A stretch of DNA of 64,000 nucleotides from Gemmatales bacterium (GTDB lineage: Bacteria; Planctomycetota; Planctomycetia; Gemmatales; HRBIN36), in the NCBI GenBank assembly GCA_046350055.1, contig JAXMBC010000001.1, positions 510,660 through 574,659 on the forward strand, read 5' to 3'. Position 1 is the stretch's first letter; each line of letters begins with the position of its first letter. Under the pieces are notes generated by a model. That model was not told where the DNA came from and ran no database searches. It was given only the letters and a program-made list of their open reading frames with translations. The translations under genes and the position numbers were made by a program. This document shows positions 7,801-57,924 of the stretch, one piece after another.

Positions 7801-8157
7801 GTGCGCCGTGGGAAGGTATCGGACTTCAGCAGGAAGAGAGTCCTGCCCGGCAACTGGGTCGTTCCAGCTGGTAGTAGTCGAAGTGACGAGGGAGGTAACA
7901 AGCTCGTTGAAGCCTTCGATGTAACGGTAATGCCTGGCATGATCAGCGAGGAGTCAGGCCGTAACGCGAGTGAACTGTCCCCGACCAAATTGTGGTCGCA
8001 CTCTTTCCCGAATTAAGGCTGTAGCGATTTCGGCCTGTCAGAGGCCCGATTCCCGAATTGCTGCGTAATCTGGAGGCGGGATGTACGACGCTGCTGGTCA
8101 GATGAAGAAGAGGAAGCATGGTGGTACGATGCTGGTAATTGGGTGGAAGAAGTAGTG

Positions 8158-12298: not shown

Positions 12299-13845
12299 CC
12301 TTGTGACTCGGCATCGTCACTGAATCAGAGAGATTTTCCAGAATCGGAATCGAGCTGCGAAACTTCTTCCGCAGTAGAGCGTACTACTAGGCATGAGCAA
12401 GGATGTTCTCCCTCCTGATCCCCTGTCGCTGCCCGAAGATGTCGCGCTGCTCAAGGCGATGATTGTGGAACTGCAGCAAGCCCAGCAGCGTAGTCAACGC
12501 ACCATTGATGGTCTGCAACAACGACTGGAACAACTGCTCAAGCGTCTGTATGGTCCGCGTGGCGAGAAGTTCGACCCTCAGGCGTATGCCCTGTTTCCGG
12601 AACTGAAGGCGCTGCTGGATCAGCCTGCTCCACCCTTAGCACAGCCTGTACAAGAAGCTGGGGCCACACCGAAGAAGTCATCCACGGGTCGTCGCCAGCT
12701 TCCCTCATCCCTTCGCCGTGAACAGCATCGCTACGAACTGCCCGAAGATCAGCGGCAATGCCCGAACTGCCACGTCACCTGCGAACCGTTCAGCGAAGAG
12801 GTGACTGAGCAGCTCGATTACATCCCCGCCAATCTCTTCGTGCACGAGCACATCCGCTGCAAGTATGCCTGCCCCCAGTGCAAAAGCCATGTCGTGACCG
12901 CTCCCAAGCCGGCCCAACCCATCGACAAAGGGCTGCCTGCGGCCGGCCTCATCGCTCATGTCGCCGTGTGCAAGTACAGCGATCATGTACCGCTCCATCG
13001 CCAGGAGCAGATCTTTGCCCGGCATGGCCTGGAACTCCCTCGATCCACGACCTGTGATTGGATGGCGTCAGCTGCAGAACTGCTCAAGCCGCTCTACGAC
13101 GAGATGATCAAAGAGATCCTGCAGTCGCGCCTGCTGCACACGGACGACACGCGGGTGTCGATGCAGGACAAGGCGACACCAGGAAAAACGACCTCGACCC
13201 GCTTCTGGACCTATGTCGGGGATGATGAGCATCCCCTGACAGTCTTCGACTTTACACTCTCACGGCAACGTGATGGCCCCGCCTCCTTCCTGAAGGGTTA
13301 TTCGGGAGCGATTCAGGCCGATGGGTACTCGGCCTACGATGGCATCGCGGCTCAGCGGTAACAACCCACGCGGTGGGTGCTGGGCCCATGCGCGCCGTCA
13401 CTTCCATGACACCGAGAAGACGGCACCACCGATGTATTATGCCGAGGTCATGGCCCGCATCGGTCGGCTGTTTGCCATCGAACGGGACATCAAGGAGCGG
13501 CTGGAGTCGATGACAGAGCAACAAGGCCATCCCGTCGTGGGGACGGCTGCCGATGCGGTGCGCCTGGAGGTACGACAGTTACGCACGATACCGGAGCTTG
13601 AGACGCTACGCCACTTCCTCGACGAGCAGAAGAAGGACGCGTTGCCCAAGAGTCCCTGGGGACAGGCGGTGAACTACGCCCTCAACCAGTGGGACGACTT
13701 GTGTCTCTTCACCACGCTCGGCTGTTTGGCGATAGGTAGAGTCGAGAGGTGGCGGTGGTTTAGGTCAGGCCCATCTGTTGCCGGCCCTTTCGTCTGCCGG
13801 TGCCTCACTCGCCTGACCGTGCTCCGTTTCCACCTCCCGCTCCTC

Positions 13846-13878
13846 GAACCGGACGTGCAGGTTTCCCGCATCCGGCTC
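13846..13878 (-). ncRNA. Group II intron domain V
   Basis: The minus strand reads 'GAGCCGGAUGCGGGAAACCUGCACGUCCGGUUC'. It has the AGC triad, a 2-nt bulge and a GAAA-type loop, close to the consensus GAGCCGUAUGCG..GAAA..CGCACGUACGGUUC. Confidence 0.8.
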
Positions 13879-13890
13879 TCATCCGAATCA

Positions 13891-15219: not shown

Positions 15220-15830
15220 CGTCAATCTCCCGGTTGTCGCCGCTTCGTGCGTTCGATCTGAATCAGGGTCCCTTCCCTCCACCGGCGTTACCCGGCTTCA
15301 CGAGTACTACGGACCCATCCGCCATCTGCTCCCACCGCCGCTGGCCCTCACGGGTTCGGCGTTGCTCGAAAGCATGGATGCAGACTTCCCTTGTTGCCTG
15401 GAGAACCATTCGCGTGCGTGCCGTCACCACTACCCCGGAAGAATTGCTCGGTGCACCTAGCGTCGCTTCCCGAACAACGTCGGCCTTCCCCGTTATTGTG
15501 GCGGGTCGGCTTCCCCATTGGCCGTATCGAGGCCTGCTCGGTGTTCACTGAACGTTACGGCCCACACGCCCGCTGACTTCCTTTAACAGAAGCCGTCTCT
15601 GAGAGTGCTTCAGATCATTCGTCGCCTCCTGATCCGCCCCCAGTGCTTCCGGCTGGGACGCTATACGCCGGTCGGGACTTCCACCCGAGGATCCTCCAAG
15701 CCTTTACAAGGCACACACAACAACATCGCCGAGCGGTCACTGCGTGGCATCGCCCTGGGACGACGCAACTGGCTCTTCGTCGGAAGCCCCCAGGGAGGCC
15801 AAACCGCTGCCATCCTCTTCAGCGTGCTCG

Positions 15831-15993: not shown

Positions 15994-17214
15994 TCAGCTA
16001 GATTGGCAACAAAGTACGACCCAAGCGCGGGAAGGAACAGGTAAGCGACTGCGTTGACTCCGTCGCCGTAAGGCGAAGAGCCAGCCGCGAATCACTTGCG
16101 TCCGGAATGCTTCCATGGCTGGCAAGTTGCCAGAGATCGCGTGGTACTGGTAGTAACCTCGTACCACTGAGCCCAGCCACTGGCCTTGCTGCGAAACTGG
16201 AGTGTGACGATACTTCATCAGTGTCGTCTTCACCACTTGCAACTTGGCACGCAGCCGAGCTTTGATCGTCTGTCGGCGAAGCAAGTAGCCCTCGCCATTC
16301 CGAGGTTTTCCACAGATGTGGGTGAACCCCAGAAAATCGAAGGTCTCCGGTTTGCCCAAGCCCCGTTGCTGCCGATTGACTTGGGCGTAACGCCCAAATT
16401 CAATCAGCCGGGTCTTGTTCGCATGCAGGCAAAGACTGAATCGCTTCAGGCGTTCCCGAAGGTCCGCCAGAAAACGCCTTGCGTCCGCCACGTTCTGGAA
16501 TCCCACTACGAAGTCATCCGCATAGCGAACGAGGATGACTTCGCCGGTGGCGTGTTTCTTCCGCCACTGGTGAGCCCAGAGATCGAAGACATAATGCAGG
16601 TAAACATTCGCCAGGAACGGTGATGCCACCGAACCTTGCGGAGTTCCCACCGTCGTCTTCGACCTGGCACCTTGCTCCGAGACTCCTGCCCTGAGCCATT
16701 TCTGAATCAGACGCAAGATTCTCGGATCTGCCACGCGATGCTCGATGAACTTGAGCAGCCATTCATGGCTAATGGTGTCGAAGAAGACCTGAATATCCGC
16801 ATCGAGTATCCACCTCACCCGTTTTCGTGCCAGCCCTACCCAAAGTGAATCCAACGCATCATGTTGGCTACGCCCTGGACGGAAACCATACGAAAACCCC
16901 AGGAAGTCTTCCTCGTGGATCGCCTCCAGTACAGTCACCACTGCCCGTTGGACTAGCTTGTCCTCCAGGGAAGCAATGCCTATCGGACGCTCCCGACCAT
17001 CGGCCTTCGGTATGAAGACGCGACGACTAGGTTGTGCTCGATAGGTTCCGCTGTGGACTCGCCTGTGCAAGTCCATGAGACGCTCTTCGAGACCTTCCTG
17101 ATACTGTTGCCAGGTCACCCGATCCACTCCGGGAGCAGCACTTCGCTTGAGGGCGAAAAAGCTTTCACGCAGCAGGTCGATGGTGACATGATGCAACAGT
17201 GCGGTGAAGCGCAT
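15994..17214 (-). pseudogene. Group II intron-type reverse transcriptase, 3'-truncated/frameshifted and without ribozyme domains
   Basis: True start 'MRFTALLHHVTIDLL' at 17214. RT motifs are 'RPIGIASLEDKLVQ', 'SYGFRPGRSQHDAL', 'GTPQGSVASPFLAN' and 'YADDFVVGF'. The C-terminus degenerates after 'RRRSQRS'. Only ~80 nt lie upstream and ~5 nt downstream before the IS66 sequences. Confidence 0.7.
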
Positions 17215-17294
17215 CCGCTTCTCCCGCTGTGCCACTTTGCGCACACGCCACAGTGGAGACGACGCCAAGCCCCGGCTCTGTGTCCGGCTGGCGG

Positions 17295-17452
17295 CCAGCT
17301 GCAAACGCCATGAAGTCGAACCCTGGGCCTATCTCCGCGACGTGTTGCAACGACTGACACTGCCAGCCACTCCTGAAGAGCTACGCCAACTGTTTCCCCA
17401 TCGCTGGAAGCCAAACCCCGGCACGAAGTGACGGGATTCGTCGGACGCATAC
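17295..17452 (+). repeat. 158-bp IS66 3' end, second copy (solo right-end fragment)
   Basis: It is a direct repeat of 15831-15988 and encodes the same TnpC C-terminus ('CKRHEVEPWAYLRDVLQRL.LPATPEELRQLFPHRWKPNPGTK'). Confidence 0.85.
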
Positions 17453-29654: not shown

Positions 29655-29736
29655 TCGTCACGGGTGAGTGAAGCCTTCGCTTCGCCCACCACGTCCCATC
29701 TGTTTACATGAGTCTTCATTCCACCACCTGCAACCC

Positions 29737-30063
29737 ATGATCACCAGAGAACTGCTGCGCCATCTCCGCAACGATCTGCCCATGCCCGTCACCATCGCCG
29801 CCCTCGGCACCGATGGTCCGCCTGCCAAACGCAGCGAAGGACGCTACCTCTTCCACTGCCCGCATTGCAAAGAGATGCTCGCCACAGTCAACCCACGCAA
29901 CAACCTTGCTCATTGCTTCGGCTGCACCAAGAACCTCAACAATATCGACCTGCTTCTCATCATGGGCTACGACTTCATATCCGCCGTCAGCATCCTGGCG
30001 AGGATGTACGACCAGCACCGGGCCCGGTTGCCTCGTGCTGAATCACCGCTGGCATCGAGCTAG
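29737..30063 (+). CDS. CHC2-type zinc-finger protein of the Mu-like element (intact copy)
   Basis: 'MITRELLRHL...FHCPHCKEMLATVNPRNNLAHCFGCTKNLNNIDLLLIMGYDF' follows the C-P-x-C ... H-C-F-G-C pattern of primase-type CHC2 fingers. Confidence 0.6.
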   Translation: MITRELLRHLRNDLPMPVTIAALGTDGPPAKRSEGRYLFHCPHCKEMLATVNPRNNLAHCFGCTKNLNNIDLLLIMGYDFISAVSILARMYDQHRARLPRAESPLASS

Positions 30064-30265
30064 CAAGACTACTCCTTCCACCCTGTCTCTGGGATCGCCC
30101 CCCCATGCTTACTCTTCATCACCTGACCAGCACCGTCGTATACCCCTTCTCCAGTTTGCGGACCAGCACACCTAGCTTTTCCCTATCTTCAGCGTTTCCG
30201 TCCGGTGAACAGCACCCTTGACAGGTCTGGTACTCTCGCTCTATTTCTTAAGAGGCGAGGGTGTC

Positions 30266-30643
30266 ATGGCGAACCGTGTGCGGAGTGAGGCGAAGGAACG
30301 GTTGTGGCGGGAGCAAGTAACGTCGTGGCAGCGGAGTGGGTTATCGATCCGTGAGTACTGCCAGCAGCATCAGTTGAACGAGCCCAAATTCTACGCATGG
30401 CGTCGCGAGTTAGCACGGCGTGATGAGGCGGGTGGCATTTCCACGAAGTCAGTTCAACGACCTAAGCCATTGTCAGTGACATGGATGCCGCTCACGGTCG
30501 ATCCTTCAACGGTACCAGTGGTAGAAGTGCAGTTGACCACTGGCACAGTGCTGCGTGTCCCTGCTGGTGTCGAGAGCATGCCCCTGGAACGTATCCTGAA
30601 GGCACTACATCAGGCGAATGCTGCTCAGGAAGCACGGCCTTGA
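30266..30643 (+). CDS. IS66 orfA (HTH accessory protein), intact
   Basis: 'MANRVRSEAKERLWREQVTSWQRSGLSIREYCQQHQLNEPKFYAWRRELARRDEAGG...VEVQLTTGTVLRVPAGV'. Confidence 0.7.
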   Translation: MANRVRSEAKERLWREQVTSWQRSGLSIREYCQQHQLNEPKFYAWRRELARRDEAGGISTKSVQRPKPLSVTWMPLTVDPSTVPVVEVQLTTGTVLRVPAGVESMPLERILKALHQANAAQEARP

Positions 30644-30812
30644 TCACGCTGCGACTGCCGACCCGGGTGTTTTGTGCCTGGCCCCCACCGATATGCGTAA
30701 GAGCTTCGATGGCCTGGCATCGGTCGTGTCCAGCACGATGGCTGCCGATCCTCTGGCAGGGGATCTGTTCGTCTTCCGAGGCAAGCATGGCGACCGGATC
30801 AAGCTGCTCTAT
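30640..30812 (+). pseudogene. IS66 TnpB fragment (start ATG changed to TTG, frameshifted and truncated)
   Basis: '(L)ITLRLPTRVF' then shifts frame to 'CLAPTDMRKSFDGLASVV...GDLFVFRGKHGDRIKLLY' and ends. Confidence 0.6.
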
Positions 30813-30835
30813 TGGGAATGCGACTGACGACATGT

Positions 30836-32161: not shown

Positions 32162-32377
32162 ATGGTTGGTACAGTGTTGCAATCCATCCGCCACCAGCGG
32201 AACATGACTCAAGAAGAGCTGGCATCCAAAGCCAAGGTGGATCGCACGTACATCAGTTTGCTGGAACACAATAAGAAATCACCGACCGTTGATATGCTGT
32301 TTCGCTTGTGCCGTGCTCTGGGCGTGCGGCCTTCCGTCGTGATTGCCCGGACCGAAAAGGCCCAATCCACCAAGTAA
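32162..32377 (+). CDS. XRE-family helix-turn-helix regulator
   Basis: 'IRHQRNMTQEELASKAKVDRTYISLLEHNKKSPTVDMLFRLCRALGV' is a classic HTH_3 pattern. Confidence 0.8.
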   Translation: MVGTVLQSIRHQRNMTQEELASKAKVDRTYISLLEHNKKSPTVDMLFRLCRALGVRPSVVIARTEKAQSTK

Positions 32378-32947: not shown

Positions 32948-33991
32948 ATGACCACCCGTGAAATGATCCGCCTGGCTCAGAAGCTCCAGCAGAATTGGCT
33001 GCAGAGCTATGAAGACCAGCGTGAATCCGTTGTCCCGATCACCTCGGTGATCAGCAGCCAACTCAAACGCCTGCGCCACGCTGAACATAGGCTGCAGCTG
33101 GCCCGAAACCATCACCTCACCCTAATTGAACCCGAACTCCAGCAAAAGGTAATTTCACAGGCTTGCTCCCTGCGTATCACCTTGCAGGATCTGGAAGGGG
33201 TTCATTTTCCCCGGCAGCGTTCTTACTGTTTCCGCGACTTCTACGAAGACCTGGTGCAATTGCACGAGGAGTTCCCCGAGGTCAAAGTAAACTGGGACGA
33301 TTCCGTGCTGATCGTCGTTACAGAGGCGATCACCTTGAAGCATATAGAACTGGGGGCCTTCGCTCTGCATTTCCACTGGAAACAGTGGGCGGAGGATCAC
33401 AACCTTACATGTCTCCAGGTTATCGCTGAAGAACCGAACTCGCCGGAGCAGAATGAGGAAGTGACTCATCCCCATGTACGTGAGAAAGAACTCTGTTCGG
33501 GGGATGCCCACCTTTCCTTACAGAAAGCGTTTGCAGAGGGGCGACTCGCAGAAGCCTTCCTGATCATTCGGGCAGTGCTTACCAACTACAACCCCGGTAG
33601 TGCCTATGTCCGCCTGGAAGAATGGCACGGCTCTCCCTGTTACGACTGTGGTCAATATTCCCATGACGAAGACCGCGGCAACTGCCATGGCTGTCATCAC
33701 GATTATTGCCAGGAGTGCATCCACAGCTGCTCTACCTGCGACGAGTCTCGTTGCCTGAGTTGCCTGGATAGTTGCTCCGTGTGTGAAGACCGCTGTTGCC
33801 CAGATTGCCTGGAGTTGACCTGCACTAATCACTACGTCTGCCGTTCCTGCCGGGAGACCTGCCCGGGCTGCCAACAACTCTATGGACCTGGTGAACTCGA
33901 TGCGGAGACCAGGCTCTGTCACGACTGTGTTGATGACACCATTCCACTGGAGGAATCTTCCGATGAAGTTCTTTCGACGGCAGCGACCTAA
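32948..33991 (+). CDS. E2 (UBC)-like protein with a C-terminal poly-CxxC domain, cassette 1
   Basis: ATG 32948 (AGGAG upstream). 'EEVTHPHVREKELCSGD' resembles the UBC HPN...C active-site signature. aa 231-327 contain ten CxxC motifs. Confidence 0.65.
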   Translation: MTTREMIRLAQKLQQNWLQSYEDQRESVVPITSVISSQLKRLRHAEHRLQLARNHHLTLIEPELQQKVISQACSLRITLQDLEGVHFPRQRSYCFRDFYEDLVQLHEEFPEVKVNWDDSVLIVVTEAITLKHIELGAFALHFHWKQWAEDHNLTCLQVIAEEPNSPEQNEEVTHPHVREKELCSGDAHLSLQKAFAEGRLAEAFLIIRAVLTNYNPGSAYVRLEEWHGSPCYDCGQYSHDEDRGNCHGCHHDYCQECIHSCSTCDESRCLSCLDSCSVCEDRCCPDCLELTCTNHYVCRSCRETCPGCQQLYGPGELDAETRLCHDCVDDTIPLEESSDEVLSTAAT

Positions 33992-34631
33992 ACGTCGCTG
34001 CCTGGTCTTTTCGCCACTGGCCTACTTAAAGTTCCAGTATCTCTGTCATGCGGGCCCCACGGAAGTTGGGGCCTTTGCTGTTTCATCCCTTCAGCGACCA
34101 CTCTATATCGAGGAGTTGCATACCCTTCCACAAACCACCTCTCCTGGAACTGTTGAGTTCCACGATACTGCCGTGGCCGATTACTTCGATCAGTGTGTTG
34201 ATCGGGGACTGCAGCCTGCACAATTCTTCAGACTTTGGTTGCACACCCATCCGGGTGACTCTGCTGAACCCAGTGGTACCGATGAAGAGACTTTTCAACG
34301 AGTCTTTGGAACTACGGACTGGGCGGTGATGGCCATTCTGAGCCGCGGAGGCCGCAGTTACGCACGCATGCGTCTCAACGTTGGGCCTGGTGCCAGCTGC
34401 CGACTCCGCTGGCGCGTAGATTGGGCATCTTGGCCGGAAGAACTCAATGATCATTCACTGCAGTACCTACATGAGGCCTGGCAGGAAGAGTACTCATTGA
34501 ACATCCGACCTAGCATGCCACACACTTTTCCCCATCACACAGGAATGAACTGGAACTCTCAACTTCTGGCCGAGATCGACCATTGGCATTCCCTTTCCAC
34601 CCCTGGAGACTCTCACGATGTCTTTTCCTGA
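33963..34631 (+). CDS. JAB/JAMM (MPN+) metallopeptidase, cassette 1
   Basis: 'GPTEVGAF' supplies the Glu, and 'HTHPGDSAEPSGTDEETF' matches H-x-H-x7-S-x2-D. The gene overlaps the E2 end by 29 nt. Confidence 0.85.
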   Translation: MKFFRRQRPKRRCLVFSPLAYLKFQYLCHAGPTEVGAFAVSSLQRPLYIEELHTLPQTTSPGTVEFHDTAVADYFDQCVDRGLQPAQFFRLWLHTHPGDSAEPSGTDEETFQRVFGTTDWAVMAILSRGGRSYARMRLNVGPGASCRLRWRVDWASWPEELNDHSLQYLHEAWQEEYSLNIRPSMPHTFPHHTGMNWNSQLLAEIDHWHSLSTPGDSHDVFS

Positions 34632-35360: not shown

Positions 35361-36080
35361 ATGCAGGTGTTAACACAAGGCAATCGTAAACTGGGCAGGA
35401 AACATATCTGGGGATTCACTCTCCCTTCCGGAACTGATGCCGTCTGTCCAGGACGTACCATCAGTTGCTCACACCATTGTTATGCTCGACGACTGGAGAA
35501 GATTCGTCCGAACGCGCACAAGGCCTATCGTCGCAACTTGCACTTGAGTCAACGCAAGGACTTCCCGCGCCGCGTGTATCATTTTGTTCGGGCCATGCGG
35601 ATTCGGACGGTTCGCATCCATGTCGGAGGTGATTTCTACTCCGATGAGTATGCCCGAAAATGGCTTCGCATCATCGAACGTTCACCCAAGACCCGGTTCT
35701 ACTTCTATTCCCGTTCCTGGCGCGTTCCACCGATTCGTACTGTGCTGGAGCAAATGGCTTGTTTGCCAAACTGTCGAGCCTGGTACTCCTGTGACCAGGA
35801 AACCGGGCTTCCAGCACAGGTGCCAGCAACCGTCAAACTGGCCTGGCTCCAAGTGGATGAAGAGGAAGAGATAGCATCAAACATCGATCTCGTCTTTCGG
35901 CGACAGGGGCTAAGGCGATTGTCACTATCCACCATTGCAGCCAAAGTCTGTCCTGAGCAGGATGGCGTGGCTCGATCGATGCCAGTCACCTGCGAGCAGT
36001 GCCAACTCTGTCTTCGCCCTGAACTAACTACATCCAGCACTCATGACTTGTTGTCATCGCTGCATCTGGCAATGCATTAG
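35361..36080 (+). CDS. Cys-rich phage/plasmid-type protein (GP88-like?)
   Basis: 'GNRKLGRKHIWGFTLPSGTDAVCPGRTISCSHHCYARR' resembles my recollection of the phage GP88 family N-terminus. This is unverified. Confidence 0.45.
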   Translation: MQVLTQGNRKLGRKHIWGFTLPSGTDAVCPGRTISCSHHCYARRLEKIRPNAHKAYRRNLHLSQRKDFPRRVYHFVRAMRIRTVRIHVGGDFYSDEYARKWLRIIERSPKTRFYFYSRSWRVPPIRTVLEQMACLPNCRAWYSCDQETGLPAQVPATVKLAWLQVDEEEEIASNIDLVFRRQGLRRLSLSTIAAKVCPEQDGVARSMPVTCEQCQLCLRPELTTSSTHDLLSSLHLAMH

Positions 36081-37543: not shown

Positions 37544-39058
37544 TTGTACGCGGATTATATTCCAGAATCCCAGCACCCTCACGGTTTGCTTCCACTGTGG
37601 AAGACAACTTTCAGAATGGTGCTGACGATTCTCATGACTGCCTCGCTCACGAAACAATCTGATTCACGCAAGTGGCAGACAACTGAGCTACTAGGAAAGC
37701 ATGTTCACAAGACACTAAACAATTGCAGTGTCAGTATCGTTGAACGCAATGGCAAATACATGGCTCGTGGCCGACACCTTCGCAAGCAATACTGTGAAAC
37801 ACTAGGCGGCACAAGGTTAGAGGCTGAATCAAGATTAATCGAGCTACTATCCGAGTTAACGAAGGGTACTTTTCAGCCGCCTCAGGTACAACGGAAACAG
37901 TTCGTGCAGCACCGATTCGTGTCGCACTTGACATTTTCAGAATTGCTAAGCCAATACATCACTGATGTTCGGAAAACCAAAGGACGCGACACCACAAAGA
38001 CGTATCTGGCCAGGCTGGGACATATTGAACGATTTGCTTGTGAGCCTGGTAACGCTAAACAATGGCCCACAGTCAACAGTATTAATCGTGATTTTATCTT
38101 GAAACTGAAATGCCAGCTTCAGCACGCTACCGTTACTCCCAACGGCCACGCACATAGCATCGCCAAGCCCATGTCACAACGACAGATCTTCAACGTGCTG
38201 TCAATGTTGGGGACGATGTTCCAGTGGGCGCTTCGTACCGATATTCGTCGACTTCCTGCACACTGGATAAATCCATTAACCAGGGAGTTGATAGGAGCCA
38301 AGCCAACTAAGGATCCTATTCGGAGGCTTACCATGAACGATGAGTATTTGCTACAGCTGATCCAGCACTGTGATGCTTGGCAGCTGACACACCTCGCGCT
38401 TAGTTTCGTTTATCCTCTGCGACCCGAAGAAGCAGTTGGCCTCCTTGTTGAGGAGGTTGACTTCTCGAAGAGGGAGCTCCGATTTGGTTCCAGGTTCGGT
38501 GGTGACGACTACACCAAAGGCAAGCAAAGTTTCGTGTTGCCTGTCCCGCCCGAGCTGACTCCCATCTTGAGCCACCTCGTGAATGGCAGGCACCATGGCC
38601 CACTTCTGCGTCAACGGCGACATTACACCCTGCCGAGCGAATCTTTACAGCCTGATACCATCGAAAACGGATACCGAGCCATGCTGATGGTCAACCAGGC
38701 AGATGTTATCACAGCCCAAGATCGTAAGCGATATCTACGGAGGACGTTGTCACAGTTCGGCGGTATCACACCCGACGTCTTAACCAAGGAGTTTAAAACG
38801 CTGATGCGCCAGGCTGGTGTGACTAGCAAGATAAGGCTCTACGATCTTCGAAGCCTCAATAGTACCAGGCTTTATCAATCGGATGTAAACCATCTTGCCT
38901 GCCGGTATTTCACCGGACATGCTGCCAACGACATCATGAACAGCTATGTGGCCCTGCAGCCACACAAGGACATACAACCATACTTCCTGGCCCTGCAACC
39001 AGTCTTGCAGGCCATCACCAAGCGATACCAGGAGCTCAGACTTGGTGTCACTGTATAA
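37544..39058 (+). CDS. Tyrosine recombinase/integrase (start uncertain: 37544, 37616 or 37634)
   Basis: The C-terminal catalytic region contains 'YDLRSLNSTRL' and 'FTGHAANDIMNSYV' (R...H...Y). The N-terminal arm/SAM-like region reads 'TFSELLSQYITDVRKTKGRDTTKTYLARL'. Confidence 0.8.
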   Translation: MYADYIPESQHPHGLLPLWKTTFRMVLTILMTASLTKQSDSRKWQTTELLGKHVHKTLNNCSVSIVERNGKYMARGRHLRKQYCETLGGTRLEAESRLIELLSELTKGTFQPPQVQRKQFVQHRFVSHLTFSELLSQYITDVRKTKGRDTTKTYLARLGHIERFACEPGNAKQWPTVNSINRDFILKLKCQLQHATVTPNGHAHSIAKPMSQRQIFNVLSMLGTMFQWALRTDIRRLPAHWINPLTRELIGAKPTKDPIRRLTMNDEYLLQLIQHCDAWQLTHLALSFVYPLRPEEAVGLLVEEVDFSKRELRFGSRFGGDDYTKGKQSFVLPVPPELTPILSHLVNGRHHGPLLRQRRHYTLPSESLQPDTIENGYRAMLMVNQADVITAQDRKRYLRRTLSQFGGITPDVLTKEFKTLMRQAGVTSKIRLYDLRSLNSTRLYQSDVNHLACRYFTGHAANDIMNSYVALQPHKDIQPYFLALQPVLQAITKRYQELRLGVTV

Positions 39059-39560: not shown

Positions 39561-40706
39561 CTAGGCGGATTTGTTCTCCACACCTCCTTGCTGAGGACGC
39601 AGGATCGGCTGATTCATCAGACTATCCATCGCAGCCTTTGCCACATGGTCATGGGTCTTGGCGTAATGACGCAAGATTTCTTCATCGACATGTCCTACCC
39701 ATGAGCGAACCGTTGTCTCAGATGCCGTTTTTCCCGAAAGCGCATACGAGATAAACGAGTGCCTGAAGGTGTGAAGATGTCCCGGTAAACCGAGTTGCTT
39801 GAGTACCTTTTTCAATCGCCCCAGCAATCGTTTTTCACTCCATTGCTTTCCTTCGATTCGTTGCTGCTGCGTCACTGGCATCGTCATTACCCAGGCACTG
39901 ATCCGAGGCATAGACGTAAACATATCCCGTAGTTTGTTGGACATCGTGATCACTCGTTGATCGCCCGACTTTGGCTTCCAGCCTTCCTTAGCCCGGATAT
40001 GGATGATCTCTTTCTCGAGATCTAGATCCTCCCATTTCAACCAAGCTAATTCTCCAAACCTAGCTCCCGTATGCGCCAGAAAAGTCAACTCTGACTTGAT
40101 GTTCTCGGGAGAGGCATCAATTATCATGTTGACTTGTTCCCAAGTCCAACATGGCTGAATCGCTGCAACGGGCTCAGGATTACTAAGTCCTTCCAGGGGA
40201 TCCTCAGCAATGAGCTTTCGTTTCAGGCAAAAGTTGATCCAGGTACGAATGATCATGACCTCGTCATGAATCGTTTGCTCCCCAGGCGGTTTTTTGGCCT
40301 TTGAACGAGCAATCCTGTATTGATCCACAAAGAGCAGATTCACTTGGCTGAGCTTTGTGCATTTCTGGAGATTTGCCAGATTCGCGACACGATCCATCAC
40401 CAATTGATACTTCCCAAGGGTCTTACGAGCCCGACCATTGACCCTGAGTTGATCCAAGTAAAGCTTCTGCCCTTCGGCAATCGACTTTACGGTTTGCTTG
40501 GCTTGGAAAGTTCCCTCATTGAGTTGCACCTCGATCTTCATTGCTCGAGCGCGGGCTTCCTTCTTGTTGGTTGTTTTCATCGAGTCGCGCTGCTGACGAC
40601 CGTCTAGTTGATAATTCGCGTACCACTTTCGGCCACGCTGGAAGATACTGACAAGTTCGCCTATCCGCTCACTGTCGCGATTGGGTTTGTGGGATTGTTC
40701 CGACAT
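39561..40706 (-). CDS. Tyrosine recombinase/integrase
   Basis: ATG 40706 (GGAGAA upstream). Motifs are 'TGARFGELAWLKWEDLD' and 'HLHTFRHSFISYAL...GHVDEEILRHY' (R, HxxR, H, Y). Confidence 0.85.
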   Translation of the reverse strand: MSEQSHKPNRDSERIGELVSIFQRGRKWYANYQLDGRQQRDSMKTTNKKEARARAMKIEVQLNEGTFQAKQTVKSIAEGQKLYLDQLRVNGRARKTLGKYQLVMDRVANLANLQKCTKLSQVNLLFVDQYRIARSKAKKPPGEQTIHDEVMIIRTWINFCLKRKLIAEDPLEGLSNPEPVAAIQPCWTWEQVNMIIDASPENIKSELTFLAHTGARFGELAWLKWEDLDLEKEIIHIRAKEGWKPKSGDQRVITMSNKLRDMFTSMPRISAWVMTMPVTQQQRIEGKQWSEKRLLGRLKKVLKQLGLPGHLHTFRHSFISYALSGKTASETTVRSWVGHVDEEILRHYAKTHDHVAKAAMDSLMNQPILRPQQGGVENKSA

Positions 40707-40784
40707 AGATTCTCCGAGTTCGAATGTTGACAAGCATGTCAACGCGGGTGTTGTTGGGAAAAACATGAGCCATCCGAGAGGATG

Positions 40785-43150: not shown

Positions 43151-46100
43151 CTAGGAGCCGCTTAAGTAGTTGTCATTCTCCTCCGATTGGAAAATGGTAG
43201 CAAGCATAGACGAAGCACCGGTGGGTCGAATTATTCGCCAGCGAAGACACCCACGCTGGGCTTTTAAGTGCGGTTCCCAGAGTTTAAGGTAGGTGGTTAG
43301 GTACTGCCCCAACTCCGTCCCGTTCGTCCGTTCCATTAGATCGTTTAAGCGGCCATGTTTGGGTAGTGTGTCAGGCCAGTCTAGTGGCTGCACCGCCTCG
43401 CTTTCCATTCCCTTGTAGTAAAGGTCAAGGCTCAGGGTGCACAATTCAGTGATGCATTCACGCTCTACATCAGTGAGCTCAAAAAGATCGAACACCACCT
43501 GGTCAAGCTGTCCCTCAAGACCCCTGATCAGTTCGGCGCGTTCCACTTGGGCGATACCCTTGTCTGCAAATAACCGGTTAGGGTCTGTCGCTGGAGGGAT
43601 CTCACGAAGTGTATCTACGATTCGCACGATTTTGTTTTGAAGGCTCACCTTTTTGGGAAACCGTACCGGAAGACTGTACAAAACATCTTTCTTTACTTCG
43701 TCATGCCAGAGGCCCCAAGTCCCCGATGTTAGGAATAGGTAGTACCTCGTGAGAGACGACCATAGAATCGCGAGTAGAACCTTCGCTTTGTCCTCACCCA
43801 ACTCTGAAACCGGTACGCAGTGGATCGAGTCTTTAAAAGCAAATGGCTTAGTTTCAAACCTGGCAGCGATCTGCCCGTCAAGCCCAGCCGATTGGTCGAT
43901 ACCACGTTTTATTAGGAGGCGAGGACCTTCATAGATGAAACGTTCCCTACGACGGTGAACCTTAGTAGGCGCGTCCTCAAATTCGTCAGATGGCATCGGG
44001 CTATACCGTTCGAACAGTTTGGTGGGAAATACCTTGAATTCTAGTAACCAATCACTCGGATCTTTGCGTGATGCGACCTGAAATCCTACCCGCATCTTCG
44101 ATTCGTCAGGGTCAACTGCCTTCTTGAAGGACTCTTCAAGCCGCAAACGCTGGATTAATGCACGGTCACGATTCGTCCCCCACCAATAAATCTTCCATAA
44201 TGTTTCGTCGGACAGGAACTCATCTTGTACACCGTAACAGAAGTCCGCTCGGTTGAGTACAACTGCTTTGACGTGTCGGATTAGTGCGGTTTCCTTCGCT
44301 GCCCAATAACTAAACGAGCTTCCGATTTTTGGCCGTACATTATCGAATATGACTGCGGCGAATGGAGCAATCGAGCCCTGACCATCTTCCTCGTCCTTGT
44401 CCTCGTTCTGAAAGTATGCGTCGCGCACTGCGGCAAAGTTAATCACCTTTTGTAAGGTAGCCCCGGTCAGCCACTGTTCGCGAAACTTTCGCGTCTTGTC
44501 GCCACGTTTGAAAAATACCCCTGTTGAGACAAGTAACCCTGCTCGACCGTTAGGACGAAGCAGGTCAAGGCTTCGGTGAATAAAACTCTGTGAGCGCTCT
44601 TTGTCACCGAGCGAAAAACCTCGAGCCTCACACCATTGAACGCCACCATCCGACCTCAGTTCGTCGGGCACATCGGCGCGCGGCGAGCCCCACGGCGGGT
44701 TCCCCACCACAATGTCTGCACAATCTGTGAGAAAGCGGGTTCGCACCGCTTCGCTGACGATGGTGTCATCGATCTGGAACGCATCTTCAGCTAGCAGAAT
44801 GTCGAAGTGGATCTTCGGGTCGGTCTTAGTCCGAACCGAGTATGTGAGGCACGGAAGTCTATGCTGAAGGATGTCGGGCGGTTCGAGATAGTGGAGCATA
44901 GCCAGGTAAAGACTAAATGCCGTGACCCTAACTGCTTCAGGGTTAATGTCGATCCCCGCGATCTGGTCCCGCAGTATTACTCGTAGTTCGTCGGGCCGCA
45001 GACGTCGGCGTAGCTCTCCGACTCTATGTCTAACGATCCGGCGGAACGTCTCAACGAGAAAAATTCCCGAACCACATGCGGGGTCAATCACTCTAGGTCG
45101 TTTTGCCAACTCATTCTGCCCGAGGATTGCGACAGAACAAACTCAACCAACGCGGCAGGAGTGTAGTAGCTACCATCGTCCCGCTTCTGACCGGGTTTCG
45201 TGCTGTAGAACTTTTCGTAGATACTGCTGATTAGCTCGATCGGGATGATTTCGAACCGGTAGGCGAAGAAGAACAGATTATCGTCCACGTTGGCGAGCAG
45301 AAGTTTGCGAAGAAGTTTCAGGTGATTCTCAGTAACTGCCCGAAACTCCTCAGCATCCACAGGAAACATGTCCCCGTTGAAGTCATCAGAGAGCTGAGTG
45401 AACAGAGCATAGGTAAATGCTTTGTTGCTCAGGACGGCGGGGTAGAATACTCGGCGACCAGAACCTGCTGCAAACGTATCCAAGTTTTCGTCCAACAGCC
45501 TCGGCCACTTCGCTTTGTCGCCCTTAGCTACCTTTCGGAAGTAATCCTCTATGAGCACTCGACGGTCTTCGAGGTAGCGAATAAAGATCGAGCGACCGAT
45601 CAATGCGTGCGCGTATGTGGCGGAGAGACCTGCATTAATAAGTGCACTCCGCACCTTCCCGAGGTCCCGAATAAGTGCTCGGTCGGCCCGGTCACCGGAG
45701 CCAAATCGCTCGTCTTCGAACAAGCGCCCTGACTCTACCTGATCGCGTCGGTAGTTGGCAAGCTTGTCCTGGACATCTGCTGTGGTCTTGACTGCGGCCA
45801 ACAGTCGTTCGCTCCGGTATCGATCGTCGCTCTTTCGGGATGGCCTAACCGTAAGATTGAAGACGCACAGTTCACCATCACGAGCAAGGAATAACATCTG
45901 CGGGCGCGCCATGCACCAGCTAGAGTTGAAATACCCTAACCAGTCTGATGGATCGCCGGAAACCTGCTCAGCAAAGGCGATGACCGGGTAGTTGTTGACG
46001 AAGAAGACTTTCTCGGCCCCAACCTTCTTGGCGAGGGTGAGCCAGTCCCCCTTCTCGACCCAATTCGCTGGTGTAGTGTCAGTCGGACGGTCAACGGCGT

Positions 46101-54803: not shown

Positions 54804-55282
54804 TGCTTCTCCAAAGAAGGTCGTGGAGGAGTTTGGCGGAAAGGGCGTTTCTTGATGTAGGACCAGACCAAACGCAAGAGGTTGGCGACTACGAACACCA
54901 CACTGGCAACAACCAAGGTATCCAATAGTGCAAACAGATCGAACGGACGCACCGTCGTTACCTTGTGGATGCACACCACCATGGGGAGGATGGTCAAAAT
55001 CCACAGCTCAACACCATGGGCGTTGCCTCCACCCAATTGATGCAGCCAGCTTCGATCAATTGATCGCTGTAACGCCTCTTGCTTGTATTCAGACCATAGC
55101 AAGATGAAGAGACGCTGGAGCACGAGATACCCCAGAACGGCAAGGAGTACCACCACGCCAGTGATGGAAACAGGGTGATGCCAGAGTAGAAACGCCAATT
55201 GCTGGAGAGCGATGGCTACGATCGCCAGAACAACAACGATCTTGGCAACGAGTGCCCAGTTCCGTTTAGCATCGTGACACAT
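54800..55282 (-). CDS. Four-TM membrane protein
   Basis: 160-aa ORF with four hydrophobic segments, translationally coupled to the downstream GYF gene. Confidence 0.55.
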   Translation of the reverse strand: MCHDAKRNWALVAKIVVVLAIVAIALQQLAFLLWHHPVSITGVVVLLAVLGYLVLQRLFILLWSEYKQEALQRSIDRSWLHQLGGGNAHGVELWILTILPMVVCIHKVTTVRPFDLFALLDTLVVASVVFVVANLLRLVWSYIKKRPFRQTPPRPSLEKQ

Positions 55283-55354
55283 GACACATCACCCGACAAT
55301 AATGTCACTTATAGTCGATACACCTATAGTCTACATCATTGTAACGTCGATGCA

Positions 55355-55594
55355 ATGGCTCGACGTCCTTCTGCCACTGATATTCGGGTACGCTTCGGCT
55401 TCGTGATCCGGACGCTGCGTGAAGCCAGAGAACTGACACAAGAAGAACTGGCGGAACGCTCAAGAATCCATCGGACTTACCTGAGCGATATCGAACGTGG
55501 GTCGCGCAACGTGGCCCTGATCAACATCGAACGCTTGGCACAAAGCTTGTCGGTCAGCCTGGGTGACCTGTTTCGCCGAGTGGATCGCGCCTAG
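55355..55594 (+). CDS. XRE-family helix-turn-helix regulator
   Basis: 'IRTLREARELTQEELAERSRIHRTYLSDIERGSRNVALINIERLAQSL'. Confidence 0.8.
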   Translation: MARRPSATDIRVRFGFVIRTLREARELTQEELAERSRIHRTYLSDIERGSRNVALINIERLAQSLSVSLGDLFRRVDRA

Positions 55595-55642: not shown

Positions 55643-56308
55643 TCATTGGGTTACCCCTGGCAACGTCATCTCACTAGCAAGCAGGTTGAGCAACGCATCA
55701 GGCTCCACTGGTATGCCACGCAACCAGCGGCTGAACTGATGCATCATCAGCCCCGCTGCGATGGATGCGGCGTAAAGGGTACTCCGTGCGGTGCATCTCC
55801 CCACCTCCGCTTCTTCCTGGGAGAAGAGCGTAGATGGATAATGTCTTCGTGAAGCTTCGTCACCCACCGCCAATACTCGAAGCGTTTCTCCGAGCATGCG
55901 ACCATCGGCCCAGAAACGCACCTTGGAAGCAAGGGACTTCCAAATCACGCTTCGCGCACTGATGGTATCGACAGCACAGAAGACTACTTCTCCGACCGAC
56001 AGATGCTTGCGGTACACATCCCTAACAATCTGAACTTCAATAGTCTTGTCCATTCTCCGAATCGGTGACAGCAAGGAAACCGGCTTGCTCTGGCCGACAT
56101 CACGTGCTTCATATCCTTGCGTGGTAACGTTATGCAATTCCACCGTATCAGGATCGATCAATTGCAGATGCCTGGCTCCTGCTGCAGCCAGCTTCAGAGT
56201 CAAAGGCCTGCCAATTGCTCCGAGTCCGATGACCGTGATCTGAAGGTGCTCCAAGCGAGCTTGAGGCATGAGGTCAGCCTGCCTCACAAAGCGATCAGGC
56301 GTACTCAT
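55643..56308 (-). CDS. Minimal ThiF/MoeB/E1-like adenylyltransferase, cassette 2
   Basis: '[21 protein letters not shown]', '[12 protein letters not shown]', '[19 protein letters not shown]'. The protein is 221 aa and roughly 45% identical by eye to cassette 1 E1. Confidence 0.85.
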
Positions 56309-56972
56309 AGATCAGCTCCTTTTCTTCTTGATACACTTCCTGGCCCATCCATTCTTCTTCCGTGAGTTGCAGCAGCTTGGGTAGCTCCTCATCACCTCCG
56401 ATGAATTTCTCAAAACGATGAAAGGATGGTAGTTCTTCGACGCAGCGCTGATACTCGTCATACCAGGCCGAGGGATCACTGCCGCGAAAGTTCTGCTGGT
56501 AGCTGATTTCGACAGGAAGCAGGATGTCACCTGCAGGACCAGCGTGGAAGCGTAGTCGGGCATATGTCTGCCCGCCTCGCGCCAGAATGAACATCACGGC
56601 CCAGTCACTGGTGCCGAAGCAACGGGTGAAAGTGTCTTCATCGGTGGAGCTCGGTTCCGGGCAGTGCCCTGGATGCGTATGCACCCAGATGCGTGCACTG
56701 GCTTCCGGCGTAACACCACGGTCCACCATAGCATCGAAGTAGTCCGCCACGGACGCATCCTCAAAGCTCACGGTGCCGACGGTGGTTTGTTGCTTGACCA
56801 GATGAATATCCTGGATGAGCAGCAGATCACTGGGATCGGTTTCGGCAAAGCCACCGACTTCGGTGGTGCCGATATCACGCAAGAACAGCAACTTCGCCCA
56901 AGCATAGGGCGTGAGCCTCAGGGCCGGCTTGGTCGTCTTCCTCGTCATCTGGCGATTCAGTCGACTCGTCAT
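56295..56972 (-). CDS. JAB/JAMM (MPN+) metallopeptidase, cassette 2
   Basis: 'GTTEVGGF' and '[18 protein letters not shown]' (HxHx7Sx2D). The start is taken as 'MTSRLNRQ' (56972). Confidence 0.85.
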
Positions 56973-57924
56973 ATTCAGTCTCCTCGTTGGGTTGGCAGTT
57001 AGGACATAGACCATCGAACAGGCATGCATCGCAGCCATCCGCCATACAGGCGGAACAGTGGATCATGCAGTGGGCACAGAAGTTGTCTCCACAGATCGAG
57101 CATGGCTTGATGCAGCCCTGACATCTGGGATCGGTACAGTTGGAGCAGTACCCGGTGCAGTCGAGACAAACCAGATCGTCACAGCAAGGACATGTGATAC
57201 CTTCACTGGTCTCCACCATGGCTGAGCAACTTTGGCAGGGTGTACCGAACCACTTGTCCATCGCGTGGTATGCGCTGTCTGGGTTGTAAGTAGTCAGGAT
57301 CTGCTGCACGATAAGGAAGAAATCAAACAAGCGTCCTTGCTGAAGCGATTGCTTGATGGATAAGGCTCCATCTCCTTCACACAGATACTCGTGACTGACA
57401 TGAGGATGCACCATCTCCTCGTTGACTTCGGCGGGATTGGGATCGAGTGCCTTGATGCGATAACAGTGGCGTTGACCCAACTTTCTCCATTCCAGGATGA
57501 CCTGAAACCGTCCAAGCTCGATTCCCTCGAACACCATGCTTGGGATGGTGACACGAAGTTCGGACTTCTCCAGGTCACACTCGACCTCCTCGAATTCTTC
57601 TTCGAGGTACTCCAGCTCACGCCAGAGTTCAGGAAGCGTTATAAGCCCAACTTGCTCTCGTTGTTGCTTGAGAGCACTTTGCAAGCTCTGAGCGTAACCA
57701 GCTAAGTCTGTTAGCAATCGCTCAAGATCGTCAGCCAACTCAGCCTGAGCATGGAGCCACTGGGCATCAAGAGTCGTTTGATGGAGTAGCATTCTGGTGA
57801 GCAGCCTACTCCAGATCATGTGCGGCAATTCCAAAGTGTCCCGTGAGAGACGGGCCTGGACCAGTTGCCGATGAATCCGGAGAGCTGCTCGCCAGCGCTG
57901 ACGTTGGTCATTTGACCATGACAT
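56875..57924 (-). CDS. E2 (UBC)-like protein with a C-terminal poly-CxxC domain, cassette 2
   Basis: It contains 'EEMVHPHVSHEYLCEGD'. aa 230-310 carry ten CxxC motifs with the same 7/8-residue spacing as cassette 1, followed by an acidic tail. Confidence 0.65.
   Translation of the reverse strand: MSWSNDQRQRWRAALRIHRQLVQARLSRDTLELPHMIWSRLLTRMLLHQTTLDAQWLHAQAELADDLERLLTDLAGYAQSLQSALKQQREQVGLITLPELWRELEYLEEEFEEVECDLEKSELRVTIPSMVFEGIELGRFQVILEWRKLGQRHCYRIKALDPNPAEVNEEMVHPHVSHEYLCEGDGALSIKQSLQQGRLFDFFLIVQQILTTYNPDSAYHAMDKWFGTPCQSCSAMVETSEGITCPCCDDLVCLDCTGYCSNCTDPRCQGCIKPCSICGDNFCAHCMIHCSACMADGCDACLFDGLCPNCQPNEETEYDESTESPDDEEDDQAGPEAHALCLGEVAVLA

Follow-up and report, generated by a model that had tools for sequence, protein, structure and literature searches.

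A repeat-expandable CxxC array as the C-terminal domain of a large, unannotated family of E2-like proteins in bacterial ubiquitin-like conjugation cassettes

The study of ubiquitin-like conjugation in bacteria (CBASS Cap2, Bil, Bub) is still young, and the choice of target by systems without an E3 ligase is open; the locus analyzed here raises that question in a concrete form: what is the tail of ten CxxC motifs that its E2-like proteins carry, and what could such a tail do for a conjugating enzyme (E2)? The window, a stretch of 64,000 nucleotides from a Gemmatales bacterium (contig JAXMBC010000001.1, positions 510,660 to 574,659 of the forward strand), holds two cassettes, here cassette 1 and cassette 2, in each of which a ubiquitin-like protein (Ubl) precursor, the E2-like protein, a JAB/JAMM peptidase and a minimal activating enzyme (E1) are encoded in that order. 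We describe the array, the family that it defines, the fold and metal sites predicted for it, and the role that it may have in the cassette.

The CxxC array and the family that carries it

A sequence-only reading of the window had placed ten CxxC motifs with a 7/8-residue periodicity in each E2-like protein, and retranslation returned every motif at exactly the amino-acid and nucleotide positions claimed. In cassette 1 the motifs CYDC, CHGC, CQEC, CSTC, CLSC, CSVC, CPDC, CRSC, CPGC and CHDC start at residues 231, 246, 254, 261, 269, 276, 284, 298, 305 and 324, and in cassette 2 CQSC, CPCC, CLDC, CSNC, CQGC, CSIC, CAHC, CSAC, CDAC and CPNC start at residues 230, 245, 253, 260, 268, 275, 283, 290, 298 and 307. 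The starts are thus 15, 8, 7, 8, 7 and 8 residues apart in both proteins, followed by 14, 7 and 19 in cassette 1 versus 7, 8 and 9 in cassette 2. The periodicity is real, and corresponds to a 15-residue repeat with two CxxC motifs. The two proteins share 36% identity over 197 residues and 29% overall.

The cysteine positions are kept despite this low identity, as the reading had noted. An initial search found 35 homologues, all without a Pfam domain or a name, the best of them 93% identical and encoded in a Gemmatales metagenome-assembled genome (MAG). Across 34 homologues, 11 of the 20 array cysteines are invariant (C231, 234, 246, 249, 254, 257, 261, 264, 269, 272 and 284), and C276, 279, 287, 298 and 301 are conserved in at least 90%. 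A profile of the core (residues 1–228), from which the tail was left out, was then run against 1.84 billion cluster representatives and matched 2,639 proteins at an expectation value (E) ≤1e-3 and 887 at ≤1e-30 (50%-identity cluster representatives); the tail is nearly universal among the top matches. A word-indexed search returned 1,115 clusters at 90% identity, every one of them annotated as “hypothetical” and devoid of a Pfam domain. Among 233 unique tails from genomes and metagenomes, 221 carry eight to ten CxxC motifs (ten in 151, nine in 35 and eight in 35), and counts below eight come mostly from proteins that are short, truncated or frameshifted. P0036 (733 residues) and P0084 (783 residues) depart from the usual form: one was matched by the core profile in two stretches, possibly as a tandem E2 duplication or fusion, and the other has an N-terminal extension of ~400 residues.

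The array had been described as no standard domain, and this holds: scans of the E2-like protein against Pfam, NCBIfam, PADLOC and PHROG gave no match, and PADLOC had none for the Ubl either. The homologues and libraries revealed neither a domain already known from E2 fusions nor a lack of conservation of the cysteines. No relevant bacterial or Planctomycetes E2 bearing CxxC motifs was found in the literature, with the limit that a 2011 survey of prokaryotic RING and treble-clef domains lay outside the coverage and could hold a prior mention. As judged from its sequences, the array is the C-terminal domain and hallmark of a distinct, large and unannotated E2-like family and, as far as libraries and literature show, it is not an already characterized domain in an E2 fusion.

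Family-wide, the array follows a general formula: a cap CxxC, x9-12, [C-x2-C-x4-C-x2-C-x3]n and a second cap CxxC, with n = 3 to about 8 (n = 4 in cassette 2). The formula yields 2n+2 CxxC pairs and n+1 possible Cys4 sites, and the earlier estimate of about five zinc ions for twenty cysteines is consistent with this architecture. The lead-in is W-x-G-x2, directly before the first cap, and the repeat consensus is C-x-x-C-[DEG]-[ED]-x-[FVYL]-C-x-x-C-L-x-x. In the commonest architecture, type A, to which cassette 2 belongs, the spacers between motifs are 11,4,3,4,3,4,3,4,5; in type B, to which cassette 1 belongs, they are 11,4,3,4,3,4,10/11,3,15. Compared with type A as the template, type B lacks one knuckle pair, lost in place and leaving a “ghost” x11 spacer (3+4+4), and has gained one CPxC pair ahead of the last cap. 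Of the two eight-pair forms, one (11,4,3,4,11,3,15) equals type B less one repeat and the other (11,4,3,4,3,4,10/11) is without pairs 9–10, while the 14-pair form of P0068 (11,4,3,4,3,4,3,4,3,4,3,4,5) equals type A plus two repeats. The first spacer is x9 in some members, and homologues on IMG/VR viral contigs have 14–19 CxxC motifs, with six perfect 15-residue repeats in L119.

Between the cysteines the array is highly variable: the entropy of its non-Cys columns is 2.78 bits in type A and 2.17 bits in type B, compared with 1.31 and 1.10 bits for the catalytic block. It is also acidic, with a median net charge of -11 (type A) or -10 (type B). Nucleic-acid binding was considered and rejected on account of this strongly acidic character. 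The array gives way to a linker, about 39 residues long and predicted to be disordered, that has ~24% Asp and Glu and often ends in Ala, Ser or Gly. The small-residue C-termini (...TAAT, ...AAS, ...APVPA, ...AA; window positions 33929-33988 and 56878-56994) recur across the family, with 41% of the 233 tails ending in Ala; such an end could be degron-like or recognized by a peptidase, or could be a by-product of the overlapping JAB reading frame.

Predicted fold, metal sites and relatives of the array

We modeled the cassette 1 E2-like protein with AlphaFold2 (AF2), both at full length (mean predicted local distance difference test score, pLDDT, 87) and as the tail alone (pLDDT 85, and >90 across the array). 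The full-length model runs from three long N-terminal helices through a helix, a beta-meander, a loop with the HPH motif and the Cys, and two further helices into a series of short hairpins with CxxC motifs at their tips. The even-numbered CxxC motifs lie at the hairpin tips as zinc knuckles and the odd-numbered ones after the return strand, some of them in a helical turn. A short helix without Cys occupies the x11 spacer that follows pair 1. Taken together, the sequences and the models make it very probable that the array is a metal-binding structural module. That it arose by chance, is a low-complexity artifact or is a disulfide-rich secreted domain has only the high Cys content in its favor, and is effectively refuted by position-specific Cys conservation across hundreds of diverged sequences; the confident AF2 fold and the fusion of the array to a cytoplasmic, ATP-dependent conjugation cassette also speak against it. 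Iron could take the place of zinc, either as rubredoxin-like Fe(Cys)4 centers or as Fe-S clusters serving electron transfer; CxxC knuckles also ligate the rubredoxin metal, and the two metals are indistinguishable by sequence alone. We nevertheless consider iron scarcely probable: the ferredoxin motif CxxCxxCxxxCP is absent from both tails, every detectable similarity is to structural zinc fingers, and the operon is without a redox partner.

These similarities are weak, and they agree with one another. A phmmer search of the PDB gave B-box1 of MID1 (PDB 2FFW) as best match at E 0.11, and with the tail profile the same domain was reached at E 2.4e-4 (24 bits), followed by the RING domains of TRIM5 and TRIM25, the FYVE domain of WDFY3, RNF213, RING2 and Mdm2. 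Local Foldseek comparison of the tail model with the PDB returned a FYVE domain (target-normalized template modeling score, TMt, 0.61; probability 0.99) as well as LIM, PHD and RBR domains, and comparison with viral models returned Cys-rich uncharacterized phage and giant-virus proteins (E 7e-5 to 1e-3) and a Siva-like giant-virus protein (TMt 0.54). Pfam Siva (PF05458) matched 7 of the 34 members below its gathering threshold (best E 0.019), ANCHR-like BBOX matched three of them at E 0.041 and “DNAJ_related” weakly matched three, while the Pfam zf-B_box and RING models gave no match to the tail. In an hhalign comparison, the tail profile aligned with human Siva at E 3.2e-4 with all ten cysteines of pairs 1–5 in register; the 13 C-terminal cysteines of the Siva sequence used agree with the published count (PMC3935273). 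The signals appear coherent, all pointing toward the cross-brace, binuclear treble-clef class. Because neither the full-length nor the tail model found anything in the PDB at E <0.02 with Foldseek, we do not file the tail under LIM, PHD, FYVE or RING.

The closest ligand patterns are those of MID1 B-box1 and Siva. B-boxes occur in ubiquitin-ligase proteins and have E3 activity (PMC4162623), and the array comes close to MID1 B-box1 in the signature C-x2-C-x(7-11)-C-x2-C-x4-C-x2-C-x3. Written out, the B-box1 ligands follow C-x2-C-x7-10-C-x2-C-x4-5-C-x2-C/H-x3-6-H-x2-8-H, versus C-x2-C-x11-C-x2-C-x4-C-x2-C-x3-C-x2-C for pairs 1–4, so that in the array the ligands are all Cys and the x11 first spacer is one residue over the range. 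The array further differs in being fused in cis to an E2-like core and in its open-ended series of 15-residue units, for which 4 to about 10 sites are predicted, whereas a B-box is a discrete two-zinc domain of 40–55 residues; what we find is a continuous repeat of 8–19 CxxC pairs rather than a discrete two-zinc cross-brace domain. [quoted passage not shown] Siva differs from the window proteins in its number of pairs (about 6), in lacking an E2 domain and in its N-terminus, where SAH and death-domain-homology regions are found. The array also resembles tandem LIM domains and the cysteine-rich domain of DnaJ, which are likewise elongated multi-zinc modules of CxxC knuckles, and tandem LIM domains are the top full-length Foldseek matches in the PDB (E 0.08, TM about 0.25); LIM domains differ in having one zinc per about 27 residues, sequential fingers and His/Asp ligands, and the CxxCxGxG motifs of the DnaJ domain are absent from both tails. 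The array could be related, as a prokaryotic counterpart, to the Cys-rich Siva/B-box modules of eukaryotes; if that kinship is true, it would show in an ancient case an E2 joined within one protein to a RING/B-box-like element, and it bears on the origins both of the E2–RING/B-box partnership and of the Siva Cys-rich domain.

How the twenty cysteines would share their metal ions is a separate matter. We propose that two CxxC motifs together ligate one tetrahedral Zn(Cys)4, giving n+1 sites (five in each window protein), and that the topology is staggered, or cross-braced: the knuckle CxxC at the hairpin tip of repeat i and the CxxC in the helical turn of repeat i+1 would hold one zinc in common, and the lone CxxC caps would complete the first and last sites. 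For type A this predicts the pairing 1+3, 2+5, 4+7, 6+9 and 8+10. In the alignment of the tail profile with the PDB, array pairs 2, 4 and 5 fall on C119/C122, C134/C137 and C142/C145 of MID1. In the MID1 structure C119/C122 and C142/C145, the latter in the first helical turn, share one zinc, and C134/C137 bind the other (PMC4162623); pairing of pair 2 with pair 5 is thus implied by the zinc sharing in MID1. A staggered chain would also explain why there is one unpaired CxxC cap at each end (cap, 2n pairs, cap), why single repeats can be gained and lost, and why the first spacer is 11 (4+4+3), because a helical-turn CxxC at that place would have no upstream partner and could have been lost. The outcome would be a rigid, rod-like “zinc solenoid” whose length is set by the number of repeats and whose surface is acidic and fast-evolving. 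If this topology is true, one zinc per 15 residues at variable length would make an unusual scaffold for protein design.

Given metal binding, we consider the staggered topology the probable one by analogy with MID1, if by no means secured. In the chief alternative, every 15-residue repeat would ligate its own metal through its two adjacent, x4-spaced CxxC motifs with the caps clasping one more, or the array would consist of separate four-pair B-box-like modules. This arrangement satisfies the n+1 site count equally well, autonomous repeats suit the gain and loss of single repeats, and the tandem LIM domains that head the full-length Foldseek list have sequential fingers. Yet in solved cross-brace families with CxxC-x4-CxxC the two pairs sit on different zincs, as do C134/C137 and C142/C145 of MID1 B-box1 (PMC4162623), and AF2 sets the first CxxC at the hairpin tip and the next after the return strand. 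A cap-to-cap clasp is, moreover, hard to square with arrays of 8 to 19 pairs, and single 15-residue indels are unexplained by 30-residue modules. We therefore regard the alternative as unlikely, although it carries some weight. One explicit version, cross-brace modules of 30 residues (pairs 1+3 and 2+4, 5+7 and 6+8, 9+10), was rejected, as single 15-residue indels and the 14–19-pair phage arrays favor a uniform repeat. Co-loss of ligand pairs was also tried as a clue to zinc partners, but the variants proved to be ghost-pair register shifts or irregular (P0128) and do not discriminate between topologies.

The E2-like core, the cassette and a proposed role for the array

The designation of these proteins as E2-like, already given in the sequence-only reading, is sustained by an invariant HPH-x6-Cys, the register with UbcH5B, weak matches to the UBC fold and the conserved Ubl>E2>JAB>E1 operon. 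Core residues H174, P175, H176, C183, G185, G198, R199, F204, N215, W226 and G228 are invariant in the 34 homologues. In an hhalign comparison with UbcH5B (E 0.039, low probability), HPH174-176 falls on HPN75-77, Cys183 on Cys85 and YNPxS on PNPDDP. The secondary structure of the AF2 model suits a UBC fold (helix, beta-meander, Cys loop, two helices), and Foldseek matches it to UBC E2s at TMt 0.47–0.50 with probability up to 0.89 and E ≥0.1.

To place the core in its operon, a degenerate DNA pattern of its motifs (HPH...C.G...GR...F...N...W.G) was searched against GTDB genomes and gave at least 117 related loci. Among the 117 listed, 66 have all four genes in the order Ubl>E2>JAB>E1, and in 45 of the 50 incomplete ones the cut is made by the edge of the locus. 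The Ubl C-terminus ...TPTKIEG, followed by A and 0–10 more residues, is conserved in about 90 related loci; the JAB motif HTHPx7SxxD is seen in translation; and the best PDB matches of the cassette 1 E1 are ThiF, MoeB and the active adenylation domain (AAD) of UBA7. The conserved four-gene operon contains no E3 gene in the genome loci listed. The JAB open reading frame (ORF) overlaps the 3' end of the E2 gene by about 29–110 nt in cassette 1 and 75–165 nt in cassette 2, the exact length varying with the start codon assumed, which suggests translational coupling. A GP88-family gene follows the E1 gene of cassette 1, and a ThiF–GP88 pair is also found on a metagenome contig (P0020), but GP88 is absent from the 117 genome loci listed and is conserved only among close relatives of cassette 1, so that we set it aside as a doubtful component of the system.

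Which of the known bacterial systems the cassettes resemble depends on the gene compared. Bil has the gene order Ubl-E2-JAB-E1 (PMC10557695), and the window cassettes share with it this order, a Ubl with a conserved Gly and a short removable extension (whose cleavage is predicted here), the lack of an E3 gene and a nearby XRE/CapH-like regulator. Bil is without an E3, and its E2 has been proposed to choose the target (10.1101/2024.11.21.623953). BilD, the Bil E1, is a tandem protein of inactive adenylation domain (IAD) and AAD with a mobile Cys domain (10.1101/2024.11.21.623953), whereas the window E1s have 221–224 residues and a single ThiF domain; because the Bil E1 is of the IAD-AAD-Cys type, the window system is not a Bil member by its E1. 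PDB searches with the window proteins returned no sequence match to solved BilB or BilD. In the Bil descriptions consulted, BilB is given no zinc-finger tail; the families also differ in that Bil comes mainly from Rhizobiaceae and defense islands and the window family from Planctomycetota, on phages and integrative elements. Bub (6E/DUF6527) likewise combines bacterial Ubl/E1/E2 conjugation with a peptidase, but its E1 and E2 lack a catalytic Cys and use oxyester chemistry, and it has Ubl-E2 or E2-E1 fusions and a DUF6527 serine protease. The window family has an invariant Cys183, encodes its four proteins individually and lacks DUF6527; given the oxyesters, fusions and DUF6527 of Bub, the window system is not Bub. 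It is a Ubl-conjugation cassette that joins a Bil-like gene order to a separate E2 family with a Siva/B-box-like, repeat-expandable zinc array.

For the workings of this cassette we propose that the JAB peptidase would trim the Ubl precursor after its conserved Gly, that the minimal ThiF-type E1 would adenylate the Ubl, that Cys183 of the E2-like protein would take it as a thioester, and that the zinc rod would act in cis as a partner- or target-binding, E3-like arm of the E2. An arm of this kind is proposed because the operon is without a separate E3; the weak similarity to B-box1, RING, FYVE and Siva and the hypervariable array surface point the same way. The sequence-only reading had likewise suggested an E3/RING-like or substrate-recognition domain. 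Drawn from sequence and analogy, the E3-like or target-binding role is held tentatively, somewhat short of an even prospect. For the reading as a whole, a staggered poly-zinc rod that is the E2's built-in partner- or target-binding arm, we judge the chances to be evenly balanced. A bolder version would make the tail an unrecognized fold class, a copy-number-variable “zinc solenoid” of 4 to about 10 staggered Zn(Cys)4 sites, serving as the cis-linked, fast-evolving, E3-like target-recognition arm of a Ubl-conjugation system that phages and mobile elements would turn on proteins of the host or of rivals; here the balance tips to the negative, and we offer it as speculation.

Several observations weigh against the main reading. 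The assignment as an E2 is drawn from motif, predicted fold and context: no Pfam E2 family (UQ_con, Prok-E2_A to E) matched any of the 34 members even at E ≤10, and the E2 core profile found only coiled-coil noise in the PDB, with no E2, BilB or Cap2. Foldseek of the tail against the PDB gave no significant global match and no E below 0.08. The B-box, RING, FYVE and Siva similarities are all below family thresholds (best Pfam E 0.019), and part of that signal may come from Cys-composition bias. High variability between the cysteines could equally reflect a lack of constraint, as in a spacer. Finally, the minimal E1 is without a ubiquitin-fold domain (UFD), so the array or the N-terminal helices might bind the E1 instead.

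In a rival explanation the array would serve docking or assembly, holding not substrates but the minimal E1, the JAB peptidase or a further copy of the E2 (oligomerization). With an E1 of 224 residues and a single ThiF domain, lacking both UFD and Cys domain, some other element must mediate the E1–E2 contact, and wherever a locus is untruncated the array is accompanied, almost without exception, by E1 and JAB. A surface for conserved partners should itself be conserved, however, and the non-Cys positions of the array are the most variable part of the protein; the repeats range from about 3 to about 8, yet the E1 and JAB ORFs are broadly similar in size; and E1 docking is more plausibly assigned to the conserved helical region at the N-terminus. 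On this evidence a scaffold is an improbable explanation. Switches built on zinc-thiolate sites are well established, Hsp33 and RsrA among them, and a redox- or metal-sensing switch, in which oxidation of the Cys4 sites or loss of their zinc toggles the E2 under stress or infection, would draw on at least 20 thiolates in about 100 residues, very sensitive to oxidation, and on the XRE-type regulators beside both cassettes, which suggest stress-linked expression. We think such a switch very unlikely, as the known ones have one or two sites and not a length-variable repeat, and the 14–19 pairs of the phage copies suit a binding or length function better than a sensor. An E2 with its own predicted multi-zinc module and a minimal E1, in a family that is large yet wholly unannotated and is carried on mobile elements across a phylum, offers a tractable model of target selection by an E2 without an E3, and could show that Ubl conjugation is wielded by mobile elements and not by hosts alone.

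Genomic setting of the cassettes

Among the matches listed, 77 of 80 titles name Planctomycetota lineages (Planctomycetaceae, Pirellulales, Gemmataceae, Phycisphaerae, Sedimentisphaerales and others), and several genomes have 2–3 copies. A complete Ubl>E2>JAB>E1 operon in a Chloroflexota MAG (L013, JAJCYX010000200.1) may reflect horizontal transfer or a binning error. The cassette is found on six IMG/VR viral contigs of 31–129 kb, and on two of them (L119 and L120) it is joined by genes of phage families for a DnaB-like helicase, an exonuclease and a nucleotidyltransferase; INPHARED phages and PLSDB plasmids, searched with tblastn, yielded no match. In the window, cassette 1 is flanked by an XRE regulator and a tyrosine integrase, and the arrangement of cassette 2 with its large serine recombinase recurs on the contig of P0031 and in 12 of the related loci. 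Phages and integrative elements, mainly of Planctomycetota, thus carry the cassette as cargo. It may serve host defense, as prophage-encoded immunity, or the element's own use, in takeover or counter-defense. The features of the window are collected in Table 1.

Table 1. Coordinates of the two cassettes, the parts of their E2-like proteins and neighboring genes (window positions, in nucleotides)
Feature	Position	Strand	Remarks
XRE-type helix-turn-helix (HTH) regulator, cassette 1	32162-32377	+	directly upstream of operon; Pfam HTH_3 E 1e-14
Ubl precursor, cassette 1, 76 aa	32644-32874	+	beta-grasp (ThiS-like), weak ThiS match; ends ...TKIQG-AAIAA
E2-like protein, cassette 1, 347 aa	32948-33991	+	ORF translation
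N-terminal helical region, cassette 1 E2-like protein, aa 1-94	32948-33229	+	AF2 helices 3-27, 31-54, 61-85; pLDDT mostly >85
UBC-like catalytic core, cassette 1 E2-like protein, aa 95-228	33230-33631	+	HPH174-176 at 33467-33475; Cys183 at 33494-33496
Poly-CxxC array, cassette 1 E2-like protein, aa 231-327	33638-33928	+	ten CxxC; type B spacing 11,4,3,4,3,4,10,3,15
Acidic disordered C-terminal tail, cassette 1 E2-like protein	33929-33991	+	...STAAT and stop codon; pLDDT <50, residues 331-347
JAB/JAMM peptidase, cassette 1	33882-34631	+	likely start Met28 at 33963; Pfam Prok-JAB E 2e-5
Minimal E1, cassette 1, 224 aa	34618-35292	+	single ThiF adenylation domain, conserved crossover-loop Cys; Pfam ThiF E 2.6e-25
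GP88-family gene (PF17338, phrog_1392)	35361-36080	+	3' of cassette 1 E1; Pfam GP88 E 2e-34
Tyrosine integrase flanking cassette 1	37544-39058	+	Pfam Phage_integrase
XRE-type HTH regulator, cassette 2	55199-55594	+	convergent with operon; Pfam HTH_3 E 1.6e-14
Minimal ThiF-type E1, cassette 2, 221 aa	55643-56308	-	Pfam ThiF E 6.9e-21; 43% identity to cassette 1 E1
JAB/JAMM peptidase, cassette 2	56295-57038	-	Pfam Prok-JAB; 39% identity to cassette 1 JAB
E2-like protein, cassette 2, 349 aa	56875-57924	-	HPH173-175, Cys182
Poly-CxxC array, cassette 2 E2-like protein, aa 230-310	56995-57237	-	ten CxxC; type A spacing 11,4,3,4,3,4,3,4,5
Ubl precursor, cassette 2, 72 aa	57997-58215	-	weak ThiS match; ends ...VKIEG-AQ; 56% identity to cassette 1 Ubl
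Large serine recombinase	58566-60785	-	directly upstream of cassette 2; Pfam Resolvase, Recombinase, Zn_ribbon_recom
Second tyrosine integrase	39561-40766	-	faces the integrase at 37544-39058
Eco57I/MmeI-like N6 DNA methylase (type IIG-like)	43151-45109	-	between the cassettes
Group II intron RNA domains (Rfam RF02003 twice, RF00029 once) and reverse-transcriptase ORF	7827-7969; 13736-13880; 15550-15690; 15994-17304	+; -; -; -	one intron piece inside or beside an IS66 transposase ORF
RHS-repeat protein, 1,866 aa	18167-23767	-	beta-flower domains; upstream of cassette 1
Multi-glycosyltransferase/methyltransferase/TPR protein, 1,556 aa	24023-28693	+	upstream of cassette 1
CHC2 (DnaG-type) zinc-finger ORF and IS66-type accessory ORFs (HTH_Tnp_1)	29668-30063; 30218-30827	+; +	just upstream of cassette 1

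Genes of mobile elements and genetic conflict abound in the window, among them IS66, a transposase of the rve plus AAA type, a group II intron reverse transcriptase with RNA pieces, the RHS protein and the Eco57I/MmeI-like methylase. The two facing tyrosine integrases and the methylase look like a mosaic of integrated elements or a defense island.

Outside the window, genes that recurrently lie co-directionally upstream of the cassette in related loci encode a 323-residue protein (20 loci) without a Pfam match, a classical AAA ATPase (18 loci), a DUF2958 protein (15 loci) and serine recombinases (12 loci). The AAA ATPase (PF00004; phrog_8638, E 6e-86; for example L069:208-1845, L123:8259-9749 and L120:1-1011) is also present on two viral contigs, and a Ubl-tagging cassette could form a functional pair with an ATPase of the unfoldase type. 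The 323-residue and DUF2958 proteins are accompanied by several small ORFs of no assigned function (for example L062:4893-6080 and L001:4839-5873), and the recurrence of such neighbors suggests a larger conserved module of the mobile elements. The phage copies in L118–L122 lie in dense regions of small genes on the same strand, and their Ubls are diverged and end in ...KV[KDE]G.

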